Shown here: positions 13,300 to 47,074 of the stretch, piece by piece
Layout: the number at the start of each line of letters is the position of its first letter
How positions within the stretch are numbered: the stretch's first letter is position 1
Origin: an uncultured Mycoplasmatota bacterium
Lineage (GTDB): Bacteria; Bacillota_I; Bacilli_A; RF39; UBA660
NCBI GenBank assembly: GCA_900549625.1
Contig: URPE01000004.1
Coordinates: 10,885 to 74,884, forward strand
Length of the DNA stretch: 64,000 nucleotides
Direction of reading: 5' to 3'
Position numbers and translations under genes: made by a program
Notes under the pieces: generated by a model
What the model saw: the letters and a program-made list of their open reading frames with translations, nothing else
Database searches by the model: none
Told to the model about the DNA's origin: nothing

Positions 13300-15153
13300 A
13301 TGAAGTTAAAGAATAAATTACAATCAAAGCATATTTATATTGCGTTTCTCTTTATTTCTTTTTTTCTTGCACTTTTGTTTTGCATATTCATTTTGAATTT
13401 AAAATATTTTAGTAATGATTTTAAAGGGAAAAAAGATATTAATTTAACTATTAATGAAATAGATAATGGCATAGAACTTAAAAGTTCTTTAATTGATAGT
13501 TATGTTAAGGAGATTTCTTTTTTAGCGAGTACAAGTAGTGAAAATAAAATTGAAGTGCTTTTATATACAGTTAATAATGATGAAGAAGAGTATTTAAGAA
13601 GTGAGACTATCTATCCTACTTATAATGGTGAAAATTATTTTAAAATTGATAAGAATGTGTCTTCTATAGTTTTAAGAATTAATAATTTGAAGAAAGAAGA
13701 TATAACTATTAATAATTTTAAAATACATAATGAATTTAGTTTTAATTTAATTGTTTTTATATTTGTATTTTTAATTGTTTTTTATATTTGTTATTTTGGA
13801 AGAAAAATGATTTTAAAGGAAAATATTAGTATTGTTAAAACTTTTATTATGATTTCTTTACCAGTAGGGGTTATATATGCTTTAATTACACCTTTTGCCT
13901 ATTCTATGGATGAAAAAGAGCATTTTGTTCGGGCGTATAATATTTCTTATTTTAATTTTAATTTAGATAAAGGCGAAGAAGTGCTTTGGCCTTTAGATAT
14001 TAAACTTTATTTAGAACAACCTTATAATGTATTTGTGCCAACAACATATAGTTCATATAAAGCTTATATAAATGAATTAACTAATGTTGGTAATAGTAAT
14101 TATGAAAAAAAATATTATGCTTCAACTGCTGAGCCATATTTATTTTTAGCGTATGTTATTAGTGGTATAGGTATTTTAGTAGGACGAATACTTTCACTTT
14201 CTTTACCAATGCAGTTTTTACTGGGAAGGTTATTTAGCTTGTTATTTTTTACGTTAGTTGTAGCTATGGCTATTAAGCTTAGTGGTAAGTTTAAAAATCT
14301 TGTTTTTGTAGTTGGACTTATTCCGTTAGTACTCTTTCAAGCAGCATCATATTCGGCTGATATGTTTACCAATGCAATGTGTATTTTGTCTTTTGCTCTT
14401 ACAATATATTATAGTAATATGAAAAAGAAAATTGGTTTAAAAGAAATCTTGATACTTTCTTTATGTTATGCTTTTAGTTTCTTATCTAAAATAGCGTATT
14501 TTCCAGTATGTGGTTTGATATTCTTAATTAAGAATGAAAAATTTAATAGTAAATGTCAGTCATTTTTATATAAAGGACTATTAATATTAATTAATTTAGC
14601 TTTCTTTTATATTACTTATAAGTATGCTTCTATTCATGGGATCGTTCAATGGGCTGTGGAAGGTGTTGATTTAAAAAAACAAGTGCTATTTATTTTACAT
14701 AAACCATTATCTTATATAAATGTATTGTATCATACTTTTGATTTAGGAATTTTTTCCTTACTACTTACAGGAACTTTACAACTTGGTTATTTTGGTGATT
14801 TAGGTTATATGCCTCTTGTTCTTTTACTTGTAATCTTTGTAATTAGTATAGCGTCTACAAGTGTTAAAATGAGTATTTATGAAAAAATATTTATCTTCTT
14901 AGTTATTATAGGTTCTATCGTTGTTTCAATGACAAGTTTATATGTAAGTTTTACACCAGTTTCTAATACAACAGTCTTAGGTTATCAGGGACGTTACTTA
15001 ATACCAATATTTTTACCAACACTTGCTTTGTTTACATCACCTAAATTTAAGGTGGCATGGCAAGAAAAAACTATTAATTATTTTATTACTTATGGTATAC
15101 TTTTCTTGAATATATTTGGAATTTTTAAAATTCTAATAGATTATTATTTGTAG
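13300..15153 (+). CDS. large polytopic membrane protein, possible GT-C-like glycan polymerase or modifier
   Basis: More than 10 predicted TM segments, located inside the glycan locus. No specific motif recognised. Confidence 0.4.
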   Translation: MKLKNKLQSKHIYIAFLFISFFLALLFCIFILNLKYFSNDFKGKKDINLTINEIDNGIELKSSLIDSYVKEISFLASTSSENKIEVLLYTVNNDEEEYLRSETIYPTYNGENYFKIDKNVSSIVLRINNLKKEDITINNFKIHNEFSFNLIVFIFVFLIVFYICYFGRKMILKENISIVKTFIMISLPVGVIYALITPFAYSMDEKEHFVRAYNISYFNFNLDKGEEVLWPLDIKLYLEQPYNVFVPTTYSSYKAYINELTNVGNSNYEKKYYASTAEPYLFLAYVISGIGILVGRILSLSLPMQFLLGRLFSLLFFTLVVAMAIKLSGKFKNLVFVVGLIPLVLFQAASYSADMFTNAMCILSFALTIYYSNMKKKIGLKEILILSLCYAFSFLSKIAYFPVCGLIFLIKNEKFNSKCQSFLYKGLLILINLAFFYITYKYASIHGIVQWAVEGVDLKKQVLFILHKPLSYINVLYHTFDLGIFSLLLTGTLQLGYFGDLGYMPLVLLLVIFVISIASTSVKMSIYEKIFIFLVIIGSIVVSMTSLYVSFTPVSNTTVLGYQGRYLIPIFLPTLALFTSPKFKVAWQEKTINYFITYGILFLNIFGIFKILIDYYL

Positions 15154-18773: not shown

Positions 18774-18824
18774 AAAGACTAGACAAATTATGAAAATGAC
18801 TTATAATATTAATATAATTATTGA

Positions 18825-19012
18825 TTGCAAGAGTATTTTTAAATAATTTATAGAGACTTTATGGTTGGTGAAAATAAAGATGCATTTAAAAAGAAAGACA
18901 GCAACAAAATGATAAATCGTAATTCTTGCGTTAAAAGAAAAAGAGCATAGATTCTATGAAATAAGGTGGTACCGCGGATATATTCGTCCTTATGTTATAG
19001 AGTCTTTTTATT
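18825..19012 (+). promoter_or_regulatory. T-box leader (tRNA-sensing riboswitch) of aspS
   Basis: AGAGA and GGTGAAA stem I elements. T-box sequence AATAAGGTGGTACCGCGG at about 18958-18976. Terminator arms AGATTCTATGAAATAAGG / CCTTATGTTATAGAGTCT followed by a T-run. Confidence 0.8.
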
Positions 19013-19030: not shown

Positions 19031-20347
19031 ATGGAAAAAGTATATGTTAATGAACTTAGTAATTATATTGGTAAAACTATTTCTTTTAGTGGTTTTGTTG
19101 ATACGATTAGAGATAAAAAGTGGGTAATGTTTGTAATACTAAGAGACAGTACGGGAAAAGTGCAAATGACGATTGAAAAAAGTGAGGAAGAAAATCAAAG
19201 ATTACTTGATATTATGAAGAATGTTAGTACTGATAGTACTTTAAAAATTACTTGTGAGGTTAAAGAAAATGAAGCAGTTAAACTTGGAGGTATTGAGCTA
19301 ATACCTAAAAGTATTACTGTTACATCACTTGCTTGTGCATTACCATTTGATTACAATAATTTAGATGGAGTTAATATTGATACAAGACTTGACTATAGAT
19401 GGATTGATTTACGTAATCAAAAAAATATGTTAGCAAGACAAGTTGAATCTTTAATGGTCCAAGGGATGCGTGAATATTTATATAAAGAAGATTTTACAGA
19501 GATTCATACACCTAAGTTACTAGGGGCCGCTAGTGAATCTGGTAGTGAGGTATTTGAGGTAAAATACTTTGATAGATCTGCTTACCTTGCTCAGTCACCA
19601 CAATTTTATAAACAAATGGCAATGGCGGCTGGTATGAGTAAGATATTTGAAGTAGCACCGGCTTTTAGAGCAGAGAATTCTAATACTAATCGTCATGCGA
19701 CAGAGTTTACTAGTTTTGACCTTGAATTTAGTTATATTGATTCTTATGAAGATGTAATGAATTTAGAAGAAGATTTACTTATTGCAGGTCTTACTAAAGT
19801 TAAAGAAAAATATGGTGAGAAAATAAAAGATGTTTTTGGAACAGAAATCGTTATACCAACAAAGCCTTTTCCAAGAATAAAATTACAAGATTTATATAAA
19901 GAATTAAATGAAAGATATGGGTTTACGATACCTACTAGTGATGTAGGGGACTTAAATGCCGAAGCCGAAAAGTTAACTAGCCGTTATGCTATGGAGGTAT
20001 ATGGACATGAATTTATTTTCATAACTGGTTTTAGCGCGGCAAAAAGAGCATTCTATCATATGCGAGATGAAAATGGTGAATTACAAGGGTATGATTTGAT
20101 TTGGCGAGGAACAGAGATTACTACTGGTGCTCAAAGGGAACACAGATATGAAGAGATAGTTAAGAATGCTAAAGAAAAAAGTTTAGGAGAAGATGTTTCA
20201 TTCTATTTACAATTTTTCAAATATGGTTGCCCACCACATGGCGGATTTGCAATCGGTGTTGATAGACTTACTATGCTTATGCTAGGATTACCATCTGTAA
20301 AAGAAACACAGTTCCTATTTAGAGGACCTAATAGACTAAATCCATAA
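19031..20347 (+). CDS. aspS: class IIb aspartate--tRNA ligase, type 2 (short archaeal-like form)
   Basis: 438 aa. FRAENSNTNRHATEFTSFDLE (motif 2) and GGFAIGVDRL..FRGPNRLNP (motif 3) resemble AspRS2 more than AsnRS. Confidence 0.7.
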   Translation: MEKVYVNELSNYIGKTISFSGFVDTIRDKKWVMFVILRDSTGKVQMTIEKSEEENQRLLDIMKNVSTDSTLKITCEVKENEAVKLGGIELIPKSITVTSLACALPFDYNNLDGVNIDTRLDYRWIDLRNQKNMLARQVESLMVQGMREYLYKEDFTEIHTPKLLGAASESGSEVFEVKYFDRSAYLAQSPQFYKQMAMAAGMSKIFEVAPAFRAENSNTNRHATEFTSFDLEFSYIDSYEDVMNLEEDLLIAGLTKVKEKYGEKIKDVFGTEIVIPTKPFPRIKLQDLYKELNERYGFTIPTSDVGDLNAEAEKLTSRYAMEVYGHEFIFITGFSAAKRAFYHMRDENGELQGYDLIWRGTEITTGAQREHRYEEIVKNAKEKSLGEDVSFYLQFFKYGCPPHGGFAIGVDRLTMLMLGLPSVKETQFLFRGPNRLNP

Positions 20348-25724: not shown

Positions 25725-26954
25725 ATGAAGAAAATAAAAAAATATTTGTTATTAGCAATTATGTTAGTATTATTAATTTTATTTGGAATACAAAGAATTG
25801 TTTACAAACAACAATATAAAATTAATTCTTATTCTTTAGCAATATTTGTTGATGGAGAAAAGAAAGATACGTATCCTGAACGGGGAAACTATAATGTAAG
25901 TGTTGATTGCATGGGAAAGGCAAATGGTAGTTGGGACTATAATAACTGGGGACCAATCATAAAAAATTTTAATGATGGTGCTGCTTGTAATATTATCTTT
26001 ACAACTGGTAAAAAGTTTAATGAATATGTAATAGATGCATCAAAGACAGATAGTAATATTATTTATATAGAACAGTCTGATACAGTACAGACAGGTAGTA
26101 ATGCTAAAGAAGAGTATAGATATACTGGGGCTAATCCAAATAATTATGTTTATTTTGGTTGTGATAGTAATTGTACAGAAGATAATTTATACCGAATTAT
26201 AGGGGTATTACCTACTCAAAGCATTGAAGGCGGTACTTATGAAAAGAGAGTAAAACTTATAAAAAGTGATTATTATACAGAAACCGAAAGTGGGCTTTTA
26301 TTAGATTCTTCTGTTGCTCCTACTAATAAGGGGTACTATTGGTCAAACTTAACTCAAAATGACTGGGTTACATCTACGTTACAAACACAGGTTTTGAATG
26401 GTGTTTATTGGAAAAACTTAGGGGAATATCAGACTTATATTGTTAGCGTTTACTGGTATTTAGGTGGGGCTTTGTCTTATGGTACAGATAATAATTATGC
26501 AACTTATTCAGCAAATGATTTTTATGGATTTGAACGTGGTTCTACGCCTGGTGCTTATAGTTCTACATTGAAATATAAAACAAATATTGGTTTAATGTAT
26601 GTTTCTGATTTTGGCTTTTCTGCCGAAAAGGCATATAATTCATATAGCATAAATTCTTATCGAAATGTTTTTATAAATTCATGGCTTTATAAATTTTCTA
26701 ATGTTAGTAGTGAGAAAGCTGAGTGGACTATGAATAGTAATTCGGCCCAAGAAACTTATGATCCTTATGGCAGTTTAGCGTATGATATAAATTCCAATTC
26801 TAGTTTAGGCCCAGTTTATAGGCATTGGATTAAATCAACAAAAGAAAGTATTTTGGGCGTTAGACCTACTTTTTATTTAAAAGAAAATGTGTTATATCAA
26901 AATGGACTTGGTACAAAAGAATCACCATATAGAATAACATTGGGGGAATCTTAG
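25725..26954 (+). CDS. secreted/surface paralog family protein (short form)
   Basis: N-terminal TM. Shares EEYRYTGANPNNYVYFGCDSNCTEDNLYRIIGV, RVKLIK, GLMYVSDFG and GVRPTFYL blocks with 26956. Confidence 0.7.
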   Translation: MKKIKKYLLLAIMLVLLILFGIQRIVYKQQYKINSYSLAIFVDGEKKDTYPERGNYNVSVDCMGKANGSWDYNNWGPIIKNFNDGAACNIIFTTGKKFNEYVIDASKTDSNIIYIEQSDTVQTGSNAKEEYRYTGANPNNYVYFGCDSNCTEDNLYRIIGVLPTQSIEGGTYEKRVKLIKSDYYTETESGLLLDSSVAPTNKGYYWSNLTQNDWVTSTLQTQVLNGVYWKNLGEYQTYIVSVYWYLGGALSYGTDNNYATYSANDFYGFERGSTPGAYSSTLKYKTNIGLMYVSDFGFSAEKAYNSYSINSYRNVFINSWLYKFSNVSSEKAEWTMNSNSAQETYDPYGSLAYDINSNSSLGPVYRHWIKSTKESILGVRPTFYLKENVLYQNGLGTKESPYRITLGES

Positions 26955-26955
26955 T

Positions 26956-28644
26956 ATGAAAAAAAATTATAGAAAATTAATATTATCATTTTTGATTTTA
27001 TTTGTTTTTATTGGTGTTACTTATGCTTATATTAGGTTTGAGGCTGAACAAAAAGATATTAATACTGTAGCTTCATTATGCTTAAAGGTTAGTTTAGAAG
27101 AACAAGAGGGAAGTGATATTAAATTAACAGAAGCATTTCCTATAACAGATATAGAAGGTAAAAAATTATCTCCCTATGTATTTACAATAACAAATAAATG
27201 TGATACTGGTATTTTATATGAAGTTAATCTTGATATACTAAGTGATATTAATGATAATAATACATTGGGTTTAAGTTATATTAAATATATGCTTAATGAT
27301 GATGAACCTGGAATTTTAAATAATAGAGAAACTGTTAGTAAGACAAATAAAGATGCTTTTACAAGTAAACAGTTAAAAACTGCAGAATTAAGAGGAAAAG
27401 AAAGTATAACTTATAAACTTAGATTATGGATGGACTATGATACAACTATCGAAGAAGGATCAAATAAGACTTTTAAGAGTAAAATAGCTATTAAGGCTGT
27501 AAGTAAAAATTATAGTTATGATGGTGATGTAGTATTAAGTGTATATGTTGATGATAAATCAGTAAGTGAGGCTCCTAGTAAAGGTGCTTATGATGTAAGT
27601 GTTGATTGTAAAGGTACTGGCAAAGGAATTTGGAATTATGAGGAATGGGGAGCTGTTATTACAGGTTTTCAAAGTGGGGAAAAATGTGATGTTAATTTTA
27701 AAAGCAGAAAATATTTAAGTGATTATATAATAGCTAAAAGTGAAACTGAAAGTACTATAAAACATATAACTCAAGCAAGTACAATTCAGACTGGTTCTAA
27801 TGCTACGGAGGAATATAGATATGTAGGAGAAAGTTCAAGTTTAAATAATTGGGTATACTTTGGGTGTGATAGTAATTGTACAGAAGACAATTTATACCGA
27901 ATTATTGGCGTAATACCTACTCAAAAAGAAGTTGGTGGGAAATATGAAAATAGAGTAAAGTTAGTAAAAGCAAGTTATTATACAGAAACAGAGAGTGGTT
28001 ATTTAAAAGATGGTTATGGTTATGGATGGAATACCGATGGAACTAATAACTGGGAATATAGTAAAACACAAATAAATGTTTTAAATGGAGTTTATTGGAA
28101 GAGTTTAAGTGAATATCAAAAATATATAGATCAAACTGTTTGGTATCTAGGGGCTGTTGGTAATGGTGCCAATGATAATTCTTATGCTAGTTTAACTGCT
28201 AAACAATTCTATCAATATGAAAGAGGAAGTATAAAAGCAGGAAGTGGAGGAATTTTACAATACACAAATTATATAGGACTAATGTATCCAAGCGACTACG
28301 GTTTTTCAATTAGTAGTAATTATTGGAATGCAGCAGTGGATAGTAATTCTAGTATTTATATGACTTCGAATGCATGGCTTTATCCAACTTTTTCACCTGG
28401 GGTAGCTAGGGAATGGCTTATAACTCCTGATGGTGGTGCAATGGCTAGTACTTACAATTCTACTTTAGCATACAATATACATCGTTCTTCTAATCCAACA
28501 TTGTATATGGAGCCTTTATATAGGCACTGGGTTAATGTTAATTCAACTGGTTATATTAGACCATCATTTAATTTAAAAGCAAATGTAATGTATAAAAGTG
28601 GTGATGGGACAAGTTCTAATCCATATCGTATTGAAATTAATTAA
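26956..28644 (+). CDS. secreted/surface paralog family protein (long form with TasA/camelysin-like N-terminal domain)
   Basis: N-terminal TM ending in TYAYIRFEAE. Extra beta-rich N-terminal domain. C-terminal half is paralogous to 25725. Confidence 0.7.
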   Translation: MKKNYRKLILSFLILFVFIGVTYAYIRFEAEQKDINTVASLCLKVSLEEQEGSDIKLTEAFPITDIEGKKLSPYVFTITNKCDTGILYEVNLDILSDINDNNTLGLSYIKYMLNDDEPGILNNRETVSKTNKDAFTSKQLKTAELRGKESITYKLRLWMDYDTTIEEGSNKTFKSKIAIKAVSKNYSYDGDVVLSVYVDDKSVSEAPSKGAYDVSVDCKGTGKGIWNYEEWGAVITGFQSGEKCDVNFKSRKYLSDYIIAKSETESTIKHITQASTIQTGSNATEEYRYVGESSSLNNWVYFGCDSNCTEDNLYRIIGVIPTQKEVGGKYENRVKLVKASYYTETESGYLKDGYGYGWNTDGTNNWEYSKTQINVLNGVYWKSLSEYQKYIDQTVWYLGAVGNGANDNSYASLTAKQFYQYERGSIKAGSGGILQYTNYIGLMYPSDYGFSISSNYWNAAVDSNSSIYMTSNAWLYPTFSPGVAREWLITPDGGAMASTYNSTLAYNIHRSSNPTLYMEPLYRHWVNVNSTGYIRPSFNLKANVMYKSGDGTSSNPYRIEIN

Positions 28645-29024: not shown

Positions 29025-29100
29025 ATGGTGCTGAAAACAGGACTCGAACCTGCGACCTACGCGTTACGAGGGCGTTGCTCTACCAGCTGAGCTAATTCAG
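29025..29100 (-). tRNA. tRNA-Thr (anticodon CGT)
   Basis: Reverse complement folds as a cloverleaf: GCTGAAT acceptor, GCTC/GAGC D stem, loop CTCGTAA, TTCGAGT T loop, encoded CCA. There is one mismatch each at 7-66 and 31-39. Confidence 0.8.
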
Positions 29101-29158
29101 CATAGATACATTATAATGCAAAAATAAAAAAAATTCTATAAAAAGTGCGAAAAAAATA

Positions 29159-29204: not shown

Positions 29205-29278
29205 GCAGGTGTAGTTAAATGGTATAACTCTAGCCTTCCAAGCTAATATCGGCAGTTCGATTCTGCTCACCTGCTCCA
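29205..29278 (+). tRNA. tRNA-Gly (anticodon TCC)
   Basis: GCAGGTG acceptor, anticodon loop CTTCCAA, GTTCGATTC T arm, encoded CCA, 74 nt. Confidence 0.9.
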
Positions 29279-34554: not shown

Positions 34555-35631
34555 ATGAATAAATTAAAAGTAGTTGTTTATGCTATTGCTAAAGATGAAA
34601 GTAAATATGTTAATAAATGGGTAAGTTCAATGAGTGAGGCTGATGAAATAATTGTTTTAGATACAGGGTCAACTGATGATACAGTAGAGTTATTAAAAAA
34701 ACAAAATGTTAAAGTTTATGAAAGTAAAATTAGTCCTTGGCGTTTTGATACAGCGAGAAATAAGTCTTTAAGTTATGTAGCAAATGATACTGATATATGT
34801 GTATGTACTGATTTAGATGAGGTATTTGAAAGTGGTTGGCGTAAAATACTAGAAGAAAATTGGGAACCTGGTATTACTACAAGAGCTCGTTATAATTATA
34901 ATTGGAAATTAGATGAAGAAAATAATCCATTAGTAAGTTTTTGTATTAATAAAATTCATGGGCGTGACAATTATACTTGGACTCATCCTGTCCATGAAGT
35001 TTTAGAGTGTTCTAAAGAAGAAAGGGAAAAATACGTTCCTATTACTTTGAATCATTATCCAGATAAAAATAAATCGCGGTCTTCATATTTGCCTTTACTA
35101 GAATTAAGTGTTAAAGAAAGTCCAGAAGATGATCGTAACCTGCATTACTTAGGCCGTGAATATATGTTTCATAATAGGTGGCTTGATGCGATTAAAACAC
35201 TTCACAAGCATATCCATTGTCCTTTTGCTACCTGGAAAGATGAAAGATGTGCTTCCATGCGTTTTATGGGACGTTCTTATGATGCTTTAGGACTATCTGA
35301 AGAAGCTGAATATTGGTTTTTACAAAGTATAAAAGAAGCTCCATATTTAAGAGAAGGGTATGTTGAACTTGCTAGTTTTTATATTTTAAAAGATAATTAT
35401 GAGTCTGCTTATTCGTTACTTAAAAAGGCTTTAAAAATTAAAGAAAAAAGCAAATCTTATATAAATGAAGAATTTGCTTGGAATGATGCTTTTTATGATT
35501 TACTTAGTCTTGCAGCATATTATACTAATCATAAAAAAGAATCTCTTACTTATGTTAAGAAAGCTATTAAATTAAATCCTAAGAATACTAGGTATCAAGA
35601 GAATTTAAGTATTATTAAACAAAATTTATAA
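34555..35631 (+). CDS. glycosyltransferase-like domain fused to TPR repeats
   Basis: VVYAIAKDE..VLDTGSTDDT N-terminal GT2-like motif. The C-terminal half is TPR-like. Confidence 0.6.
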   Translation: MNKLKVVVYAIAKDESKYVNKWVSSMSEADEIIVLDTGSTDDTVELLKKQNVKVYESKISPWRFDTARNKSLSYVANDTDICVCTDLDEVFESGWRKILEENWEPGITTRARYNYNWKLDEENNPLVSFCINKIHGRDNYTWTHPVHEVLECSKEEREKYVPITLNHYPDKNKSRSSYLPLLELSVKESPEDDRNLHYLGREYMFHNRWLDAIKTLHKHIHCPFATWKDERCASMRFMGRSYDALGLSEEAEYWFLQSIKEAPYLREGYVELASFYILKDNYESAYSLLKKALKIKEKSKSYINEEFAWNDAFYDLLSLAAYYTNHKKESLTYVKKAIKLNPKNTRYQENLSIIKQNL

Positions 35632-37170
35632 TCTTTTAGCGTGAATAACTAATCTTTCATTGTCTCCTGTACAAGTGGATAAAGTAAGTAAGTAATCTTC
35701 ACTTGTAACAGATATATCAAAATTAGTTATACTTCTTTCTTTTACTTTATCTATATATTCTTGTTTATCTTCTAATGTGTCAAAAGAAACTCTTAAATAA
35801 TCACTTGTTTTTCTTATTGTATAAATAGAAAATATTTGCCAGTTCATTGTTTCATACATAGTATTAAAACTAATTATTAAATTGTCTTTGTTTGTATACC
35901 AACTAGAGTTAAGAGCTCTATGCAAAGTGCCAAACATAACTCCACTATAGTACATATTGTGGCCATATATGATGGTATTATCATTTAAAAATTTATCTGA
36001 GTTTCTAAAGTCCATATAAATCCAACCATTTTTATCATTTTCACCATAGAAGTTTTTCTTTAAATAATAGTCATTGTCGGCATATTGAACTACAGGATAA
36101 TCAACATTAGTATTATTAACTTTTAAATAACCAACTACATCTTTATTTATTTCTAAAAGAGAGGCAATATACTTATTTTTTATGATAAGTCCTTCTTCTG
36201 TTTTTTCTTCTATGTTAGTGTCATTATTTTTTTGTTCATCTATTTTCTTTTGGACAGCCTCACTAATACTACTGACTTCCCTCATAGCTAAATAATTACT
36301 AGTCATAACATAACCTACTGTTCCTAAAAGTAAAACAACTAAAATAATGCCACATACTTTTAATGTATTTAAACTTATTTGTTTCATTAAATTACTTTTA
36401 ATATATTCATCAGAATAAACAAGATTAATATATATTTTTTTACTTTTATACTTTTTATTTAGATTTTTTAAATAATGGAATTCTTCTTCACTATTAATAT
36501 TTTCGCAGATGCCAATACTAACATTTTTAACACGATAAGCCAAAAGTGTCTCTAATAAAAATTCTAAATCCATTCTATTATATTTGTAAATTAAAATTCT
36601 TTTTAAATATTTATTAATTTTTAAGAATGATTCAAAGTCTTCTTTGTCTTCATCGGTTAGAGTGTTTTGTAATTTAATTTCTTTTTTGTAAAATATTTTA
36701 GCATAATCAGTAAGAAAGTTATTTTGCATAAAATTAGAAATATAGAAAACTTCACTATGGGTTGTAACTAAAACATGGTGTTTATCTAGATAATCGAGCA
36801 TGAAATTAGCTACTTCATAACAATCAAGTTCTTTAATAGAGTTTTTTACAATTACTTCACAAAGACTATATGGTATACATTCTTTGTTTTTAATACTTAC
36901 TTTTTGAATAGCAATATTCTTAAATAAAGATAACATGAATAATGCAATACTTGCATTTTGGAAAGTAAGGGTATTAATATGATTCATACTACATAATTCT
37001 TTGAAAAAAGGGATAACTATTTTTTTGTTTTCTAAAATATAATCATCACTAAAAACAATTTCACTATCACTTATTATGTTTGTATTCATTAAGTCTTCTC
37101 TTATTAAAGAGTTTCTTTTATAAGCAAAATATAAAGTATTACCTTGTATTTGAATAACAATTTTCTTCAT
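35626..37170 (-). CDS. class B sortase domain fused to a ~270-aa N-terminal cytoplasmic domain of unknown function
   Basis: C-terminal DVVGYLKV..VDYPVVQ, IYGHNM and TLSTC motifs. One TM at about residues 275-295. ATG 37170 with SD GGTGG is preferred. Confidence 0.75.
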   Translation of the reverse strand: MKKIVIQIQGNTLYFAYKRNSLIREDLMNTNIISDSEIVFSDDYILENKKIVIPFFKELCSMNHINTLTFQNASIALFMLSLFKNIAIQKVSIKNKECIPYSLCEVIVKNSIKELDCYEVANFMLDYLDKHHVLVTTHSEVFYISNFMQNNFLTDYAKIFYKKEIKLQNTLTDEDKEDFESFLKINKYLKRILIYKYNRMDLEFLLETLLAYRVKNVSIGICENINSEEEFHYLKNLNKKYKSKKIYINLVYSDEYIKSNLMKQISLNTLKVCGIILVVLLLGTVGYVMTSNYLAMREVSSISEAVQKKIDEQKNNDTNIEEKTEEGLIIKNKYIASLLEINKDVVGYLKVNNTNVDYPVVQYADNDYYLKKNFYGENDKNGWIYMDFRNSDKFLNDNTIIYGHNMYYSGVMFGTLHRALNSSWYTNKDNLIISFNTMYETMNWQIFSIYTIRKTSDYLRVSFDTLEDKQEYIDKVKERSITNFDISVTSEDYLLTLSTCTGDNERLVIHAKRL

Positions 37171-37213
37171 GTATACCACCAATTTCTATTCTCTTTATTA
37201 TAATATCATATTT

Positions 37214-37302
37214 TACACACTTTGTGTGTATTTACACTAGAATTTGTAAAAAAGTAAAATTAAGATGAAAAATGTAGAAAAAATGTATTTTTATGGTATA
37301 AT
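37214..37302 (+). promoter_or_regulatory. divergent control region: palindrome plus extended -10 promoter
   Basis: TACACAC-TTT-GTGTGTA (37214-37230). TGGTATAAT at 37294-37302. Confidence 0.45.
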
Positions 37303-37334
37303 TGGTCTATAATAAAAAAAGAAAGAAGAGGTAT

Positions 37335-38042
37335 ATGATGAAAAAAAGAAATTTTGTATGGTTTGTTTTAATGCTAGTTAGTGTACTAGGTTTTCCAATG
37401 AGTACTTATGCTGCTAGTGGTGCTATTTTCGGAGCAAATTCTGATGGTTATGTTAGTTCAACAAAAACATTTGATGAAGCTAAGACTACTTTAAACGGTA
37501 ATGCTGTAAGTGTTCAAAATCAAGGTGATAGTACAGTTATTTACTTAGGTGTTAAGGTTACAGATGGTACTGTTAATAATTTCAATGCGACATTAACTTT
37601 ATCAAAATCAACATTTAAGTTTAAAAAATATGCTCGTGCTTCTGGTTGGAGTGGCTCTATTAAAGACAATGGCGATGGAACTATCAGTGTTAATTTAACA
37701 AATGCTACTGGTGTTACAAAATCAACTGGTGACGCTAATGGTAATAACTTAGTTGCAACAATTACATTAGATGCATCTGGGGCTACATCTACAGATACTT
37801 GTGAAATTGGTTTAAAACAAAACACTACTACTACTGAAACACCAAAATGTAAAATTGAAAATGGTAAATACTATGATAACAGTGGTAAAGAAGTAACTGA
37901 AGCTGAATACAAAGCTGCTTGTGAAACTACTGAAAATCCTCAAACAGGTTCATTCTTGCCATATGCTGTAATTGTTGGTGGCGTTTTAGTTGCTGGTGCA
38001 TTATATTTCATGACTAAGAAAAATAAAATATATCATATATAA
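37335..38042 (+). CDS. cell-wall-anchored protein (cohesin-like beta domain) with NPQTG sorting signal
   Basis: Signal peptide. C-terminal NPQTG, then hydrophobic stretch, then KKNK. The TTG start at 37302 is rejected because it overlaps the -10 box. Confidence 0.7.
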   Translation: MMKKRNFVWFVLMLVSVLGFPMSTYAASGAIFGANSDGYVSSTKTFDEAKTTLNGNAVSVQNQGDSTVIYLGVKVTDGTVNNFNATLTLSKSTFKFKKYARASGWSGSIKDNGDGTISVNLTNATGVTKSTGDANGNNLVATITLDASGATSTDTCEIGLKQNTTTTETPKCKIENGKYYDNSGKEVTEAEYKAACETTENPQTGSFLPYAVIVGGVLVAGALYFMTKKNKIYHI

Positions 38043-38125
38043 TTAAGGGCAAGGAAACTTGCTTTTTTCTTTGACTTGAAATATCTTAGAAATTTGTTTA
38101 TACTTGTATTAGAAAGTAGGATTTT

Positions 38126-38572
38126 ATGAAGAAAGGGTTTACTTTGATTGAAGTATTAGCAGTTTTAGTTATTTTAGCACTTTTAGCTTTGGTGGCTGTT
38201 CCTGGGGCAATGCGTATTTCAGGGGATATGAAAAAAGAGTTGTATTGTAAGAAAGTTAATCTTATTTTAAATGATATTAAAAGATATGGAGATGAACATA
38301 TAAGTAGTTTAAGTACTAGTTGCTATAAACAATTTAGTGTTAAAGAAATTGTAAGTATGGGTATTACTAAAAGAGAAGATAAAGATAGTGATATATATAT
38401 TAAAAATCCATTTACTAATTTAGCTATGGATGATGATAAAATACTTCTTTATGTTAAAAATAATCGGGCATATGCTTATTATGTTCCTAGTTATAGTGAT
38501 GATGCAGATTTATTAAAAAAAGAATGTAATTTGCAAATAATTGATATTAATAATGTGAGGTTGTGTAATTAA
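38126..38572 (+). CDS. type IV pilin-like (prepilin-type N-terminal cleavage/methylation) protein
   Basis: MKKGFTLIEVLAVLVILALLA is a class III signal (G/FTLIE). Confidence 0.8.
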   Translation: MKKGFTLIEVLAVLVILALLALVAVPGAMRISGDMKKELYCKKVNLILNDIKRYGDEHISSLSTSCYKQFSVKEIVSMGITKREDKDSDIYIKNPFTNLAMDDDKILLYVKNNRAYAYYVPSYSDDADLLKKECNLQIIDINNVRLCN

Positions 38573-40077
38573 TGATGAAAAAAGGGTTTACATTAGTGGA
38601 ATTGCTTGCGGTGGTTGCTTTGATAGCTATTTTATCTTTGGTGGCAACAGTAAGTTTTATGAAAATTAGTAATGATACTAAGAAAAATATGTATTTTGCT
38701 AAAACTGATCAGTTGTTAACTGACGCTAAAAGATATGGTGAAGATAATAAAGCAGCTTTTGAAAGCGAATTTGATTGTTTTATTGAGGTGAGTGTTGCAG
38801 ATTTAATATTTGAAGGATATTCAAAAAAAGAACAAGAAAATACGCCTTTTATAGAAAATCCATATACTAGTGCTAGTATGGATTCTGATATGATAAGACT
38901 ATATCAGAAAAATAATAGAATTTATGCTTATTATGTTCCAGCAAGTGACTCAGAACAAGATATATATAAAGAACATGATATATATAGAGTATGTGATGAT
39001 GGTGAAGATGAAGTTAAAGACGCATGCGTTAAAGAGGGAAGACCTAAATTAAAATGTGGTACTAAGATATATAAAGTTAATACTAATCATATTTATTTTT
39101 ACCATAATAGTGAATGGAAAAGACAAGGGGATACTACAACAAGAAGCGTAATTGAAGGGAACACTTATATTCCGAGTGTTATTGATGCTCCTAGTGGCTA
39201 TCATGCTGCTAATAGGTTTGAATACTTTGATTCTTTAGGTAACAAACTAGGAAGTGGAACTATTGGTGAAGATAGTATTACTGTTAATAGTGATATGACT
39301 GTAAATGTTTTATATTATCCAGATGAATATACCATTACTTACAGCGCTAATGGTGGGTCAGGGGGGCCTACAACCCAAATTAAGTATTATGATACACCAC
39401 TTGCAATAACAGATTTGGAACCTACAAAAACTGGTTATACGTTTGTTGGTTGGGCTAGAACAAATAATGCGCATACAGTTGATTTTAATAAGGGGCAAAA
39501 ATACAATGGTAATAGTGATTTACTTCTTTATGCTATTTTTAAAAAGCCACTTATAGTTACATATTATGATGGACAAGGTACGCAAAGCAATTCCGTTGAT
39601 ATTTACAATGATGAAAATTCTGGGACAATAAGACTTTTAGAAGAACGGCAATATAGTGATAATTGTGGTGGTTCTCCTTGGAACCACATTTATACTAATT
39701 TAGGGTGGAGTAGAAATACTAATCCTGATGGACGAATTGATTATGAAAATGGAAAAGAGATACCTATTTCAAGTGATATTACTTTGTATGGACAATATAG
39801 AAAGGAAGTTAAAGCTGTTTATAATGGTAATGGTGGTACTTGTGATAGAGATTATTCAACTGATGTTAAATATATTTATTATAATGGGGCTGGCAATTCT
39901 AGTCCTGGAGTTCCACTTGATGTTAACCTTGATGTTACTTGTACAAGACCAGGTTATACATTTAATAAAAAAATATATTGTAATGGAGCTCCTGATGGAT
40001 TAAAAATGATCGGTGGTACATGGAATATAGGTGATAATTTTACTTGTGGAGTAATGTGTGAAGCAGGATGGGATTAA
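38572..40077 (+). CDS. type IV pilin-like protein fused to Listeria-Bacteroides repeat domains
   Basis: MMKKGFTLVELLAVVALIA. N-terminal domain is paralogous to 38126. YTITYSANGG..TGYTFVGWA repeats follow. Confidence 0.75.
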   Translation: MMKKGFTLVELLAVVALIAILSLVATVSFMKISNDTKKNMYFAKTDQLLTDAKRYGEDNKAAFESEFDCFIEVSVADLIFEGYSKKEQENTPFIENPYTSASMDSDMIRLYQKNNRIYAYYVPASDSEQDIYKEHDIYRVCDDGEDEVKDACVKEGRPKLKCGTKIYKVNTNHIYFYHNSEWKRQGDTTTRSVIEGNTYIPSVIDAPSGYHAANRFEYFDSLGNKLGSGTIGEDSITVNSDMTVNVLYYPDEYTITYSANGGSGGPTTQIKYYDTPLAITDLEPTKTGYTFVGWARTNNAHTVDFNKGQKYNGNSDLLLYAIFKKPLIVTYYDGQGTQSNSVDIYNDENSGTIRLLEERQYSDNCGGSPWNHIYTNLGWSRNTNPDGRIDYENGKEIPISSDITLYGQYRKEVKAVYNGNGGTCDRDYSTDVKYIYYNGAGNSSPGVPLDVNLDVTCTRPGYTFNKKIYCNGAPDGLKMIGGTWNIGDNFTCGVMCEAGWD

Positions 40078-45461: not shown

Positions 45462-46952
45462 ATGAAAAGAAAGTATTTTTATATTGTTTTTTCTTCTACA
45501 TTGTTGATATTATTTACCCTTATGTATGAAGGAAGTTATGCTTATTTTAATGCTGCAATTAGTGGAACTGGCAGTAAAAAAACTATTGTTAAAACAAATG
45601 AGTTTAAAGATATAATAATTTCTAACACTTCTGTTTCATCTAGTAGTACCCTTATGCCGGGTGAGTCTGTTTCGACAACATTTACAATTAATAATCCTAA
45701 TAGTGTCAGTGTTTGTTTTGATTTATTATGGGATACTGTAAAAAATACTTTTACTAATAAGAATGATTTGGTAATTACCCTTGCTAAAAATGATAATGAA
45801 GTAAATACTAGTAGTACTATTTTCCCAAGTAGTAATGGCGAAACTTTAGCTTCACTATCAATAAAGGCTAATACAACTGATACATATAAATTAACTGTTA
45901 CATATAAAGAAACTGATATAGATCAATCTGCTGATATGAAGAAAACTTTTAGTGGTATTATTGTAGGTTCTTTAAAAGAATGTACTTTAGCTGGTTATGT
46001 TTCAGAACTAGCAACAACAGATACAACAAACTTAGCAGTAGATGATTATGGTAATACAAGATATATAGGAAAAGACCCGAATAACTACGTAAGTTTTGAT
46101 GGAGATATATGGCGTATTATTGGTGTCATGAAAGACGTTGATGATGGTAGTGGCAATAAAGAAGATCGTGTAAAAATAATAAGAAGTACATCAATAGGTG
46201 ACTATGCATGGGACACAAGTGAATCAAGTATAAATAAAGGCTATGGCGTTAACGAATGGGGCCAGGCAGACTTAATGAAACTATTAAATCCAGGCTATGA
46301 AAGTGAATCAGTAGGTGGGTCTCTATACTGGAATAATAAATCAGGAACATGTTACTCATCTTATAGCAATGGTACAAAAAGTTGTAATTTCACAAGTACA
46401 GGTATAAAAGACAAATTAAAAAATATGCTAGGTAATGCCGTATGGAATACGGGAGCGAATGATGGTGTTACATATACATATAAAAATATAACAACCTCAA
46501 AATTTTATGAATTAGAAAGAAGTACAAACACAGGTAAAATCTGTACAAGTGGCAGCTGGTGTAATGATACGGTAGCAAGAACAACAACATGGACAGGAAA
46601 GATAGGCTTAATGTATCCATCAGATTATGGATATGCAACAAGTGGCGGAAGTGGGGCAGACCGAGCAACATGTTTAAATAAAGAACTTTATAATTGGTCT
46701 GATAGTAGTGTAAGTGATTGCTATAATAATGATTGGCTATTTAATAGTAGTAGTAAATATCAATGGACATTATCGTCGCATGCTAGCTATTCCAGTGCTT
46801 ACCTTGTGTTCATTGTGGACAGCTCTGGCCGCGTCGACTCCAACATTGCGTACTTCTTCAATGGCGTCCGTCCCGTCGGTTATCTGTTACCCTCTGTAGG
46901 AATAGAAAGTGGAGATGGCAGCTCAGGAAATCCGTTTACGCTTAAATCTTAA
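45462..46952 (+). CDS. secreted/surface paralog family protein (long form) with compositionally aberrant 3' end
   Basis: N-terminal TM ending in GSYAYFNA. TasA-like N-terminal domain. The central region is close to 2467-3877 (ADLMKLLNPGYESE, KFYELERS, GLMYPSDYGYATSGGS). Confidence 0.8.
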   Translation: MKRKYFYIVFSSTLLILFTLMYEGSYAYFNAAISGTGSKKTIVKTNEFKDIIISNTSVSSSSTLMPGESVSTTFTINNPNSVSVCFDLLWDTVKNTFTNKNDLVITLAKNDNEVNTSSTIFPSSNGETLASLSIKANTTDTYKLTVTYKETDIDQSADMKKTFSGIIVGSLKECTLAGYVSELATTDTTNLAVDDYGNTRYIGKDPNNYVSFDGDIWRIIGVMKDVDDGSGNKEDRVKIIRSTSIGDYAWDTSESSINKGYGVNEWGQADLMKLLNPGYESESVGGSLYWNNKSGTCYSSYSNGTKSCNFTSTGIKDKLKNMLGNAVWNTGANDGVTYTYKNITTSKFYELERSTNTGKICTSGSWCNDTVARTTTWTGKIGLMYPSDYGYATSGGSGADRATCLNKELYNWSDSSVSDCYNNDWLFNSSSKYQWTLSSHASYSSAYLVFIVDSSGRVDSNIAYFFNGVRPVGYLLPSVGIESGDGSSGNPFTLKS

Positions 46953-46955
46953 TTA

Positions 46956-46981
46956 GGACCCGTTAAGGGGTTCTTTTTTTT
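46956..46981 (+). terminator. intrinsic terminator
   Basis: GGACCC/GGGGTTC hairpin followed by T8. Confidence 0.6.
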
Positions 46982-47074
46982 GACTTGTAATACGAACAAA
47001 TATATGATATATTATTTTTACAAATATTTTTCTTTATTTGTGGTAGAATAATAAACGTTTGGAGAGTGAATGTA

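Follow-up and report, generated by a model that had tools for sequence, protein, structure and literature searches.

Near the 3′ end of a gene in an uncultured Mycoplasmatota bacterium from the human gut, we found a 104-nucleotide (nt) segment that very probably (at a probability of about 0.9, by our estimate) arose as the variable region (VR) of a chromosomal diversity-generating retroelement (DGR). The gene occupies positions 45462-46952 of a 64,000-nt stretch of contig URPE01000004.1 (assembly GCA_900549625.1, positions 10,885 to 74,884), which is referred to here as the window, and the segment occupies positions 46773-46876. The gene product, a protein of 496 amino acids (aa), is predicted to be secreted and has an N-terminal signal and a YAYF motif. 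A sequence-only reading of this DNA had proposed a DGR variable region on the basis of base composition, and the proposal is now supported by the pattern of variation among orthologs, by the recovery of template repeats (TRs), by the adenine specificity of the differences between templates and VRs, by a DGR cassette in related contigs, and by the predicted fold of the protein. Because the window contains neither a TR nor a reverse transcriptase (RT) gene, the gene is, on the evidence of its sequence, a remote target of a DGR.

Base composition and hypervariability of the segment

An exact count of the 123 nt at 46773-46895, the interval singled out by the sequence-only reading, gives 17 A, 41 T, 38 C, and 27 G. 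The segment is thus 13.8% A, 33.3% T, and 52.8% GC, compared with 28.3% GC for the whole window and 37.9% A for the remainder of the gene. Read in frame, it has a C at the third position of 20 out of 41 codons, compared with a third-position C frequency of 8.7% in the rest of the gene. These values reproduce the earlier figures (14% A, 33% T, 53% GC, and about 20 of 41 codons ending in C). No other 123-nt window in the 64 kb is as rich in GC or as poor in A as the segment; the windows with a GC fraction of at least 0.48 form a single cluster at 46773-46895, and so do those with an A fraction of at most 0.15. No mirror-image, T-poor anomaly exists in the same set of windows (minimum T fraction, 0.18). 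The AT skew is about −0.30 in the segment and positive in the flanking gene, so that the depletion is strand-asymmetric, affecting A and leaving T normal, as had been claimed. Three paralogs are encoded in the window (2483-3877, 25725-26954, and 26956-28644), and all four proteins terminate in a (G)VRP..YL strand. The counterpart regions of the three paralogs have an ordinary composition (29-34% A and 31-33% GC), in agreement with what had been stated for one of them, and the anomaly is confined to the 45462 copy.

The 45462-46952 protein consists of a beta-rich N-terminal domain followed by a C-terminal domain that resembles DUF6273 and ends in the VR. A protein search returned about 7000 homologs. 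No Pfam family matched the protein above threshold, and an N-terminal Peptidase_M73/camelysin match was present in 21 of the 60 family members scanned. Syntenic orthologs from human-gut metagenomes, which like the gene itself lie upstream of uvrA, are 68 to 82% identical to it and are hypervariable only at aa ~438-467, where fixed and free positions alternate (consensus, SPxAxSSxAxxxFxVxSxGxVxxxxAxxxxGVRPVVYL). The DNA of eight orthologs makes the alternation more explicit. Among the columns equivalent to 46773-46876, 26 are invariant and none of these is A (0/26), whereas A makes up 36% of the columns that are invariant in other parts of the gene; at least three different bases occur in about 40 columns within the interval. 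Viewed as codons, the block is a fixed scaffold (TCT TCC, TTC, GTG, GGC, GTC, and GCG) interleaved with NNT or NNC series.

The pattern of invariant positions matched three further VRs, each at the 3′ end of a different gene and on a different contig, all within one metagenome-assembled genome (MAG) of an uncultured Bacilli bacterium (CAKOMI01). Thus, a single genome of this kind appears to carry several remote targets, or diversified family members. Because the first bases of the pattern (CANT, from TGGACATT) are located 5′ of the TR homology, it was able to match VRs and unable to match TRs. No RT or Avd was found in the open reading frames (ORFs) adjoining the three additional VRs.

Variation of another kind is seen in gene 45462 outside the VR. 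There, a few discrete alleles, at 45552-45962 (aa 31-167) and at about 46458-46511 (aa ~333-350), are shuffled between otherwise near-identical copies. This is ordinary recombination superimposed on DGR variation.

Template repeats and the cassette in related contigs

The template was predicted from the variation alone by placing A at the hypervariable columns (AAT NCN AAC TNT NCC AAT GCN AAC AAT GNN TTC AAT GTN AAC). Only one exact match to this pattern exists in the metagenome collection, at positions 14106-14147 of contig L017 (the related contigs are designated by L numbers). The corresponding TR is 104 nt long (14100-14203), reads SPNANSSNANNAFNVNNSGNVNNNNAYNNNGVRPV, is rich in Asn codons, and is separated by 385 nt from the paralogous target gene upstream of it, which encodes 573 aa and bears its own VR. 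The L017 TR differs from this adjacent VR at 16 of 34 adenines and at none of the 70 other bases (p=8e-10), and the two sequences constitute a genuine TR/VR pair.

Three TR alleles were recovered in all (L017, L018, and L025/L026), and the window VR was compared with each. It differs from the L017 TR at 20/34 A and 9/70 non-A positions (p=3e-6), from the L018 TR at 21/34 A and 11/70 non-A positions (p=4e-6), and from the L025/L026 TR, the closest allele, at 19/31 A and 7/73 non-A positions (p=1e-7). A scan of the whole window with each TR gave 46773-46876 as the sole match, with 7 to 11 non-A mismatches against a background minimum of at least 38. Taken together, the three alleles explain all but 2 of the 104 positions of the window VR. 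The adenine-specific differences expected from AAC-type template codons, as proposed in the sequence-only reading, are borne out both by the L017 pair and by the comparison of the window VR with its closest allele. The proposed interval was right in its start and in the 104 nt at 46773-46876, which match the TR, but its last 19 nt (46877-46895) belong to the conserved scaffold.

The recovered templates also account for the unusual composition of the segment. Non-A positions of the TRs are 67 to 73% GC, although the cassettes and the contigs that carry them are only 24 to 30% GC. Across 11 VRs, the mean number of distinct bases is 3.4 at positions where the TR has A and 1.8 at non-A positions, and the bases found at template-A positions are A 158 times, T 91 times, G 75 times, and C 61 times. 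A VR is A-poor, T-normal, and rich in third-position C because a GC-rich scaffold is copied faithfully while about 60% of the template adenines are replaced. The templates permit 1.9e18 to 2.6e19 protein variants, and none of their codons is able to become a stop codon; the closest template has 17 variable codons and would allow about 1.9e18 stop-free variants.

Most of the non-A differences between the window VR and the recovered TRs are common to L009, L010, and L014 and match bases of real TR alleles (GCT, GTG, TCT GGC, and CGT CCC). For this reason, the cognate template of the window VR is probably a fourth, unsampled allele, and the differences are probably not products of decay. Scans of viral contigs gave no match with either generic or TR-specific patterns, and a blastn comparison of the inferred TR with GenBank phages gave only weak partial matches, to phage nd12 and to unannotated gut phages.

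Cassette contigs were reached via homologs of a small MutS-like ORF that lies 3′ of the L017 TR. In these contigs the order is target, ORF93, TR, MutS-like ORF, avd, and RT, and the products of the last three genes have 121 to 123 aa (MutS-like ORF), 110 to 112 aa (bAvd, PF22296), and 349 to 351 aa (RVT_1). The RTs of L019 to L023 contain IGNM(T/S)SQ and YMDD motifs and are encoded 1.0 to 1.1 kb downstream of the TR. A sequence comparison with the PDB gives 8ub7 (“Reverse transcriptase”; 2e-20) as the best match of the RT, which also matches a PHROG RT family at 6e-63; among its phage relatives, none above 34% identity, are Bordetella phages and the DGR phages nd12 and nd4. Besides PF22296, the Avd proteins match the PHROG family “Avd protein of DGR” (4e-18) and NF033474 (DivGenRetAVD; 3e-14, which is below the curated cutoff). 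The sequence-only reading had predicted a TR/RT pair, and such a TR beside MutS-like, Avd, and DGR-type RT genes does exist in the related contigs, but not in the window.

The MutS-like ORF shows weak similarity to MutS domain I (MutS_I; E=9e-4), and it corresponds to the known MutS-like (MSL) accessory class. Wu et al. described in 2018 both remote targets of nonphage DGRs and MSL accessory genes found together with avd (PMC5758913). In L019 to L021, the cassette is flanked by genes for a spoIIGA-type peptidase, a sigma factor, rimP, nusA, and infB and is therefore chromosomal. ORF93 encodes 93 aa and always lies between the cassette target and the TR, with its stop codon abutting the TR (L017 13817-14098, L019 7015-7296, and L026 134-433). 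Between cassettes, ORF93 sequences share 69% identity where the RTs share 62%, and no Pfam, NCBIfam, or PHROG family matches them; ORF93 may be an undescribed DGR accessory gene.

Several further properties of the cassettes were observed. The spacer between the TR and the MutS-like ORF (about 160 to 215 nt; L017 14204-14420, L018 797-1009, and L019 7402-7562) is conserved and forms stem-loops, one of them being GGAAAGAYATACGTRTCTTTCC. Eight base pairs are kept through two-sided changes, with only about three independent lineages represented, and the spacer is probably a structured part of the DGR RNA. At 14803-14894 of L017, avd is broken after codon 9 by unrelated sequence made up of three hairpin repeats of ~19 nt (CTCCACGAATGAGTGGGAA-like), at which the sequence of L017 ends; an insertion or an assembly artefact may explain this. 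L019, which belongs to a more distant cassette lineage, has two target paralogs with VR-like 3′ ends (371-1984 and 5350-6921) within 7 kb upstream of the TR, indicating that the number and spacing of targets differ between lineages.

The cassette contigs of the closest lineage (L018 and L022 to L027; 0.5 to 2 kb) are nearly all shorter than 2 kb and begin or end at the TR, and L027 starts with VR-like bases fused to TR sequence. These features are consistent with assemblies that break at TR/VR repeats, in which case the cassettes are likely lost from MAG bins.

Taken together, these observations suggest the following mechanism. A cassette located elsewhere in the genome, whose presence is presumed from the related contigs, would transcribe the 104-nt TR, in which fixed GC-rich scaffold codons are interleaved with about 13 AAC/AAT codons and four single-A codons. 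The RT would copy the TR RNA, misincorporating opposite adenines only, and the mutated cDNA would then replace the homologous 3′ end of target genes by retrohoming, turning AAC and AAT codons into NNC and NNT. Up to about 2e18 stop-free variants could be displayed in this way on the C-terminal face of a secreted DUF6273-type domain with a putative role in ligand binding.

Boundaries, predicted fold, and genomic surroundings

At the 3′ boundary of the VR, TR and VR are collinear through ...CCCGT and then diverge, the VR continuing with CGGTTATCTG and the TR with TTGGTAGCCC. The GC-rich 14-mer at this edge (Table 1) is a candidate counterpart of the initiation of mutagenic homing (IMH) element, a GC-rich sequence that marks the 3′ boundary of mutagenesis in described DGRs (PMC5758913). 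The only stem-loop detected 3′ of the VR is the transcription terminator of the gene.

Table 1. Features of the putative DGR target gene and of its 3′ end (window coordinates)
Feature	Position	Strand	Basis or remark
Putative DGR target gene	45462..46952	+	ORF; syntenic orthologs upstream of uvrA
Predicted DUF6273-like C-terminal domain, aa 175-496 (VR = model residues 264-298)	45984..46949	+	AlphaFold2 model
Predicted VR, 104 nt, aa 438-472	46773..46876	+	Sole TR homology in the window; hypervariable among orthologs
GC-rich 14-mer GGCGTCCGTCCCGT, candidate IMH-like element	46863..46876	+	3′ edge of TR/VR homology
Conserved scaffold codons (..GYLLPS..) beyond the homology with the template	46877..46895	+	Alignments
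Intrinsic terminator of the target gene (stem-loop, then T run)	46955-46974	+	Conserved in orthologs

With an alignment of 60 sequences as input, AlphaFold2 gave a model of aa 175-496 that has a predicted local distance difference test score (pLDDT) of 80.6 and a predicted template modeling score (pTM) of 0.86, with the lowest confidence over the VR. In a Foldseek search of the PDB, the only significant match was 9qa6, an IgA peptidase of Thomasclavelia ramosa (E=1.5e-6; TM-score of 0.48 on the query), residues 31 to 322 of which are annotated as DUF6273. In a viral library, Foldseek matched at least eight phage “DUF6273 domain-containing” proteins with probabilities of 0.93 to 1.0. The TM-scores of the DUF6273 matches are only 0.32 to 0.48, and classical C-type lectins align to the model over about 30 residues only (E around 3). 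In gut phages, DUF6273 is reported to be a C-type-lectin-like domain with DGR VRs located at its C terminus (PMC10743442 and PMC11792537). The model thus predicts a DUF6273-like fold for the C-terminal domain of the target, with the VR at its C-terminal end, and agrees with the earlier suggestion of a lectin-like domain whose last part is the variable segment. In the L017 paralog, the Pfam model of DUF6273 (PF19789) scores 14.9 bits (cutoff, 23.5), and the alignment falls at the C-terminal end of that model.

Elsewhere in the window, positions 35626-40077 contain a sortase gene on the minus strand followed by two genes (38126-38572 and 38572-40077) whose products carry N-terminal methylation motifs like those of type IV pilins. 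These genes and the four secreted paralogs mark a region rich in surface structures. An intergenic repeat family with units of 84 to 86 nt (74 to 94% identical) is present at 2201-2431, 4067-4152, and 60134-60361; its copies lie on either side of paralog 2483-3877 and again upstream of the ORF at 60410. A T-box leader at 18812-18994, upstream of the ORF at 19031, and divergent genes for tRNA-Thr(CGT) and tRNA-Gly(TCC) at 29026-29101 and 29205-29278 are ordinary features.

Alternative explanations, relation to known DGRs, and significance

A number of results weigh against an active DGR acting on this gene, or against parts of the interpretation given above. In the 64-kb window, no TR-like copy of the segment was found by blastn-short, permissive blastn, an adenine-tolerant sliding matcher, or a repeat search, and no plausible RT was found, the sole YVDD in a six-frame motif scan being located in an unrelated paralog; the sequence-only reading had likewise reported neither element in the window. 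An exact cognate TR is absent among the three recovered alleles, with 7 to 11 non-A mismatches remaining, and none of the alleles accounts for two window positions, the T at 46776 and the A at 46789. No hairpin or cruciform was detected downstream of the VR: the DNA fold of 46863-46990 has a z score of +1.5, and 188 of 200 shuffled sequences fold at least as well. Such a structure is found downstream of the VR in phage BPP-1 and in many other DGRs, although it is not universal. Pfam DUF6273 (PF19789) does not match the window protein, and it matches only 5 of 60 family members, all below threshold (best E=0.01). Finally, cluster mates at 88 to 92% identity have an identical VR, their differences being located in the middle and N-terminal parts, and one and the same VR allele can be present on as many as 16 contigs from different samples. 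Because near-identical alleles share their VR and VR alleles recur across contigs, diversification appears to be infrequent on that timescale.

The last of these observations can also be read as a sign that the VR is a fossil, which was written by a DGR at an earlier time and, after loss or silencing of the cassette, is no longer rewritten in this genome and is slowly decaying. This explanation disputes present activity only and not the DGR origin of the segment. It would account for the VR being identical in three alleles that differ elsewhere by 8 to 12%, for the lack of a cassette in the window, and for the two unexplained positions and seven non-A mismatches to the nearest TR. A clearly decaying VR is, moreover, known in a sister lineage: the VR of ortholog P0019 (L001 11250-11360) has 28 mismatches to the nearest TR at its 70 non-A positions, 23 of them GC to AT and 3 AT to GC, and its GC content is down to about 42%, so that it looks as though it is no longer rewritten and is drifting toward the composition of the genome. 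The window VR shows no decay of this type, however, as it retains 54% GC and 49% C-ending codons in a genome of 28% GC. Furthermore, the non-A differences that it shares with L009, L010, and L014 and with real TR alleles point to an unsampled cognate TR, and the absence of a cassette from MAG bins is uninformative because cassette contigs are mostly shorter than 2 kb. We therefore consider a fossil VR a possibility to be kept in mind, although we think it rather unlikely.

Explanations that dispense with a DGR altogether fare much worse. The sequence-only reading had named a recombination mosaic as its alternative, in which the 3′ end would have been acquired from a higher-GC homolog by homologous recombination and without reverse transcription. 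Discrete recombination alleles do occur elsewhere in the gene (aa 31-167 and around aa 333-350), and the local GC content is twice the genome average, but such a replacement does not explain why A is depleted and T is not, why each ortholog has a different sequence here with no A among the 26 invariant columns, or why the differences from the recovered templates are adenine-specific. Neither is a high-GC donor needed, since the GC-rich template itself lies in cassettes and contigs of 24 to 30% GC. A mosaic is thus not supported for the segment and is highly improbable. Even less credence can be given to an overlapping functional element (a structured RNA, a tRNA-like attachment site, or the alternative-frame ORF of 61 codons at 46714-46899) that imposes its composition on the gene. 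This ORF does span the segment, and GC-rich islands of AT-rich genomes are often RNA genes. Yet the segment has no Rfam, tRNA, or tmRNA match, the region folds no better than shuffled sequence, and an element of this sort would be expected to be conserved between strains, while the segment is the most variable part of the gene.

As a chromosomal DGR, the system resembles those of Legionella pneumophila and Treponema denticola that contain MSL and Avd (PMC5758913). They have in common a TR made of Asn codons, adenine-specific TR/VR differences, a C-terminal VR, an RT with an IGNxxSQ motif, a small MutS_I-like ORF together with avd, several and partly distant targets (seven remote targets in the case of T. 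denticola), and a nonphage chromosomal context. The present system differs from them in its host, an uncultured low-GC gut lineage of Bacilli; in its targets, which are members of a large paralogous secreted family with a SipW/camelysin-type N terminus; and in the conserved ORF93 between target and TR, which results in the order target, ORF93, TR, MSL, avd, and RT. From the Bordetella phage BPP-1 DGR (mtd/avd/TR/brt), with which it would share A-to-N mutagenic retrohoming, an Avd partner, and a VR whose 3′ end has a GC-rich element, it is distinguished by the lack of a detected hairpin or cruciform 3′ of the VR, by a remote target, by the additional MSL and ORF93 genes, and by a predicted DUF6273-like rather than Mtd fold.

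Gut-phage DUF6273 targets, such as the tentaclins of nd4 and nd12 (PMC10743442) and the targets of Faecalibacterium prophages (PMC11792537), likewise have the VR at the C terminus of a DUF6273 C-type-lectin-like domain. Further points of agreement are the weak blastn match of the inferred template to nd12, the presence of nd12 and nd4 among the nearest phage relatives of the RT, and the match of the model to phage DUF6273 proteins. In contrast to these phage systems, the one described here is cellular, its RT is at most 34% identical to that of any phage, and the domain is the C-terminal part of a secreted bacterial protein and not of a virion protein, with a Pfam DUF6273 match below threshold. 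The T. ramosa IgA peptidase's N-terminal domain (9qa6; PMC12402451) matches in fold, is of similar size (31-322), and also comes from a gut host. Unlike the target, to which it is 14% identical, it is joined to an M64 peptidase and is not known to be diversified by a DGR; the function of the DUF6273 domain in the IgA peptidase is not established in PMC12402451.

A broader picture may be drawn, although we offer it as speculation that is more doubtful than the fossil explanation. A lineage-specific type of chromosomal DGR, with ORF93 as a fourth cassette gene, might service many dispersed members of the secreted DUF6273-like family of about 7000 proteins, providing a diversified surface tuned to host or mucosal ligands (antibodies or glycans), and its cassettes would be systematically invisible in MAG catalogues, as assemblies break at TR/VR repeats. 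The DGR itself is of a kind that is already well known, and there is mechanistically nothing new in it unless ORF93 is a new accessory factor.

Our findings show that a DGR target can be recognized from its local base composition alone, even when the retroelement lies tens of kilobases or more away and is missing from the assembly. They also reveal a blind spot: because cassettes consisting of TR, MSL, avd, and RT are mostly found on contigs shorter than 2 kb, genome-resolved surveys would list the targets as ordinary hypothetical genes. For a very large and unannotated secreted family, a mechanism of variation can now be assigned to one member, in an uncultured human-gut lineage of Bacilli, which marks the proteins of this family as likely ligand-binding molecules under diversifying pressure.

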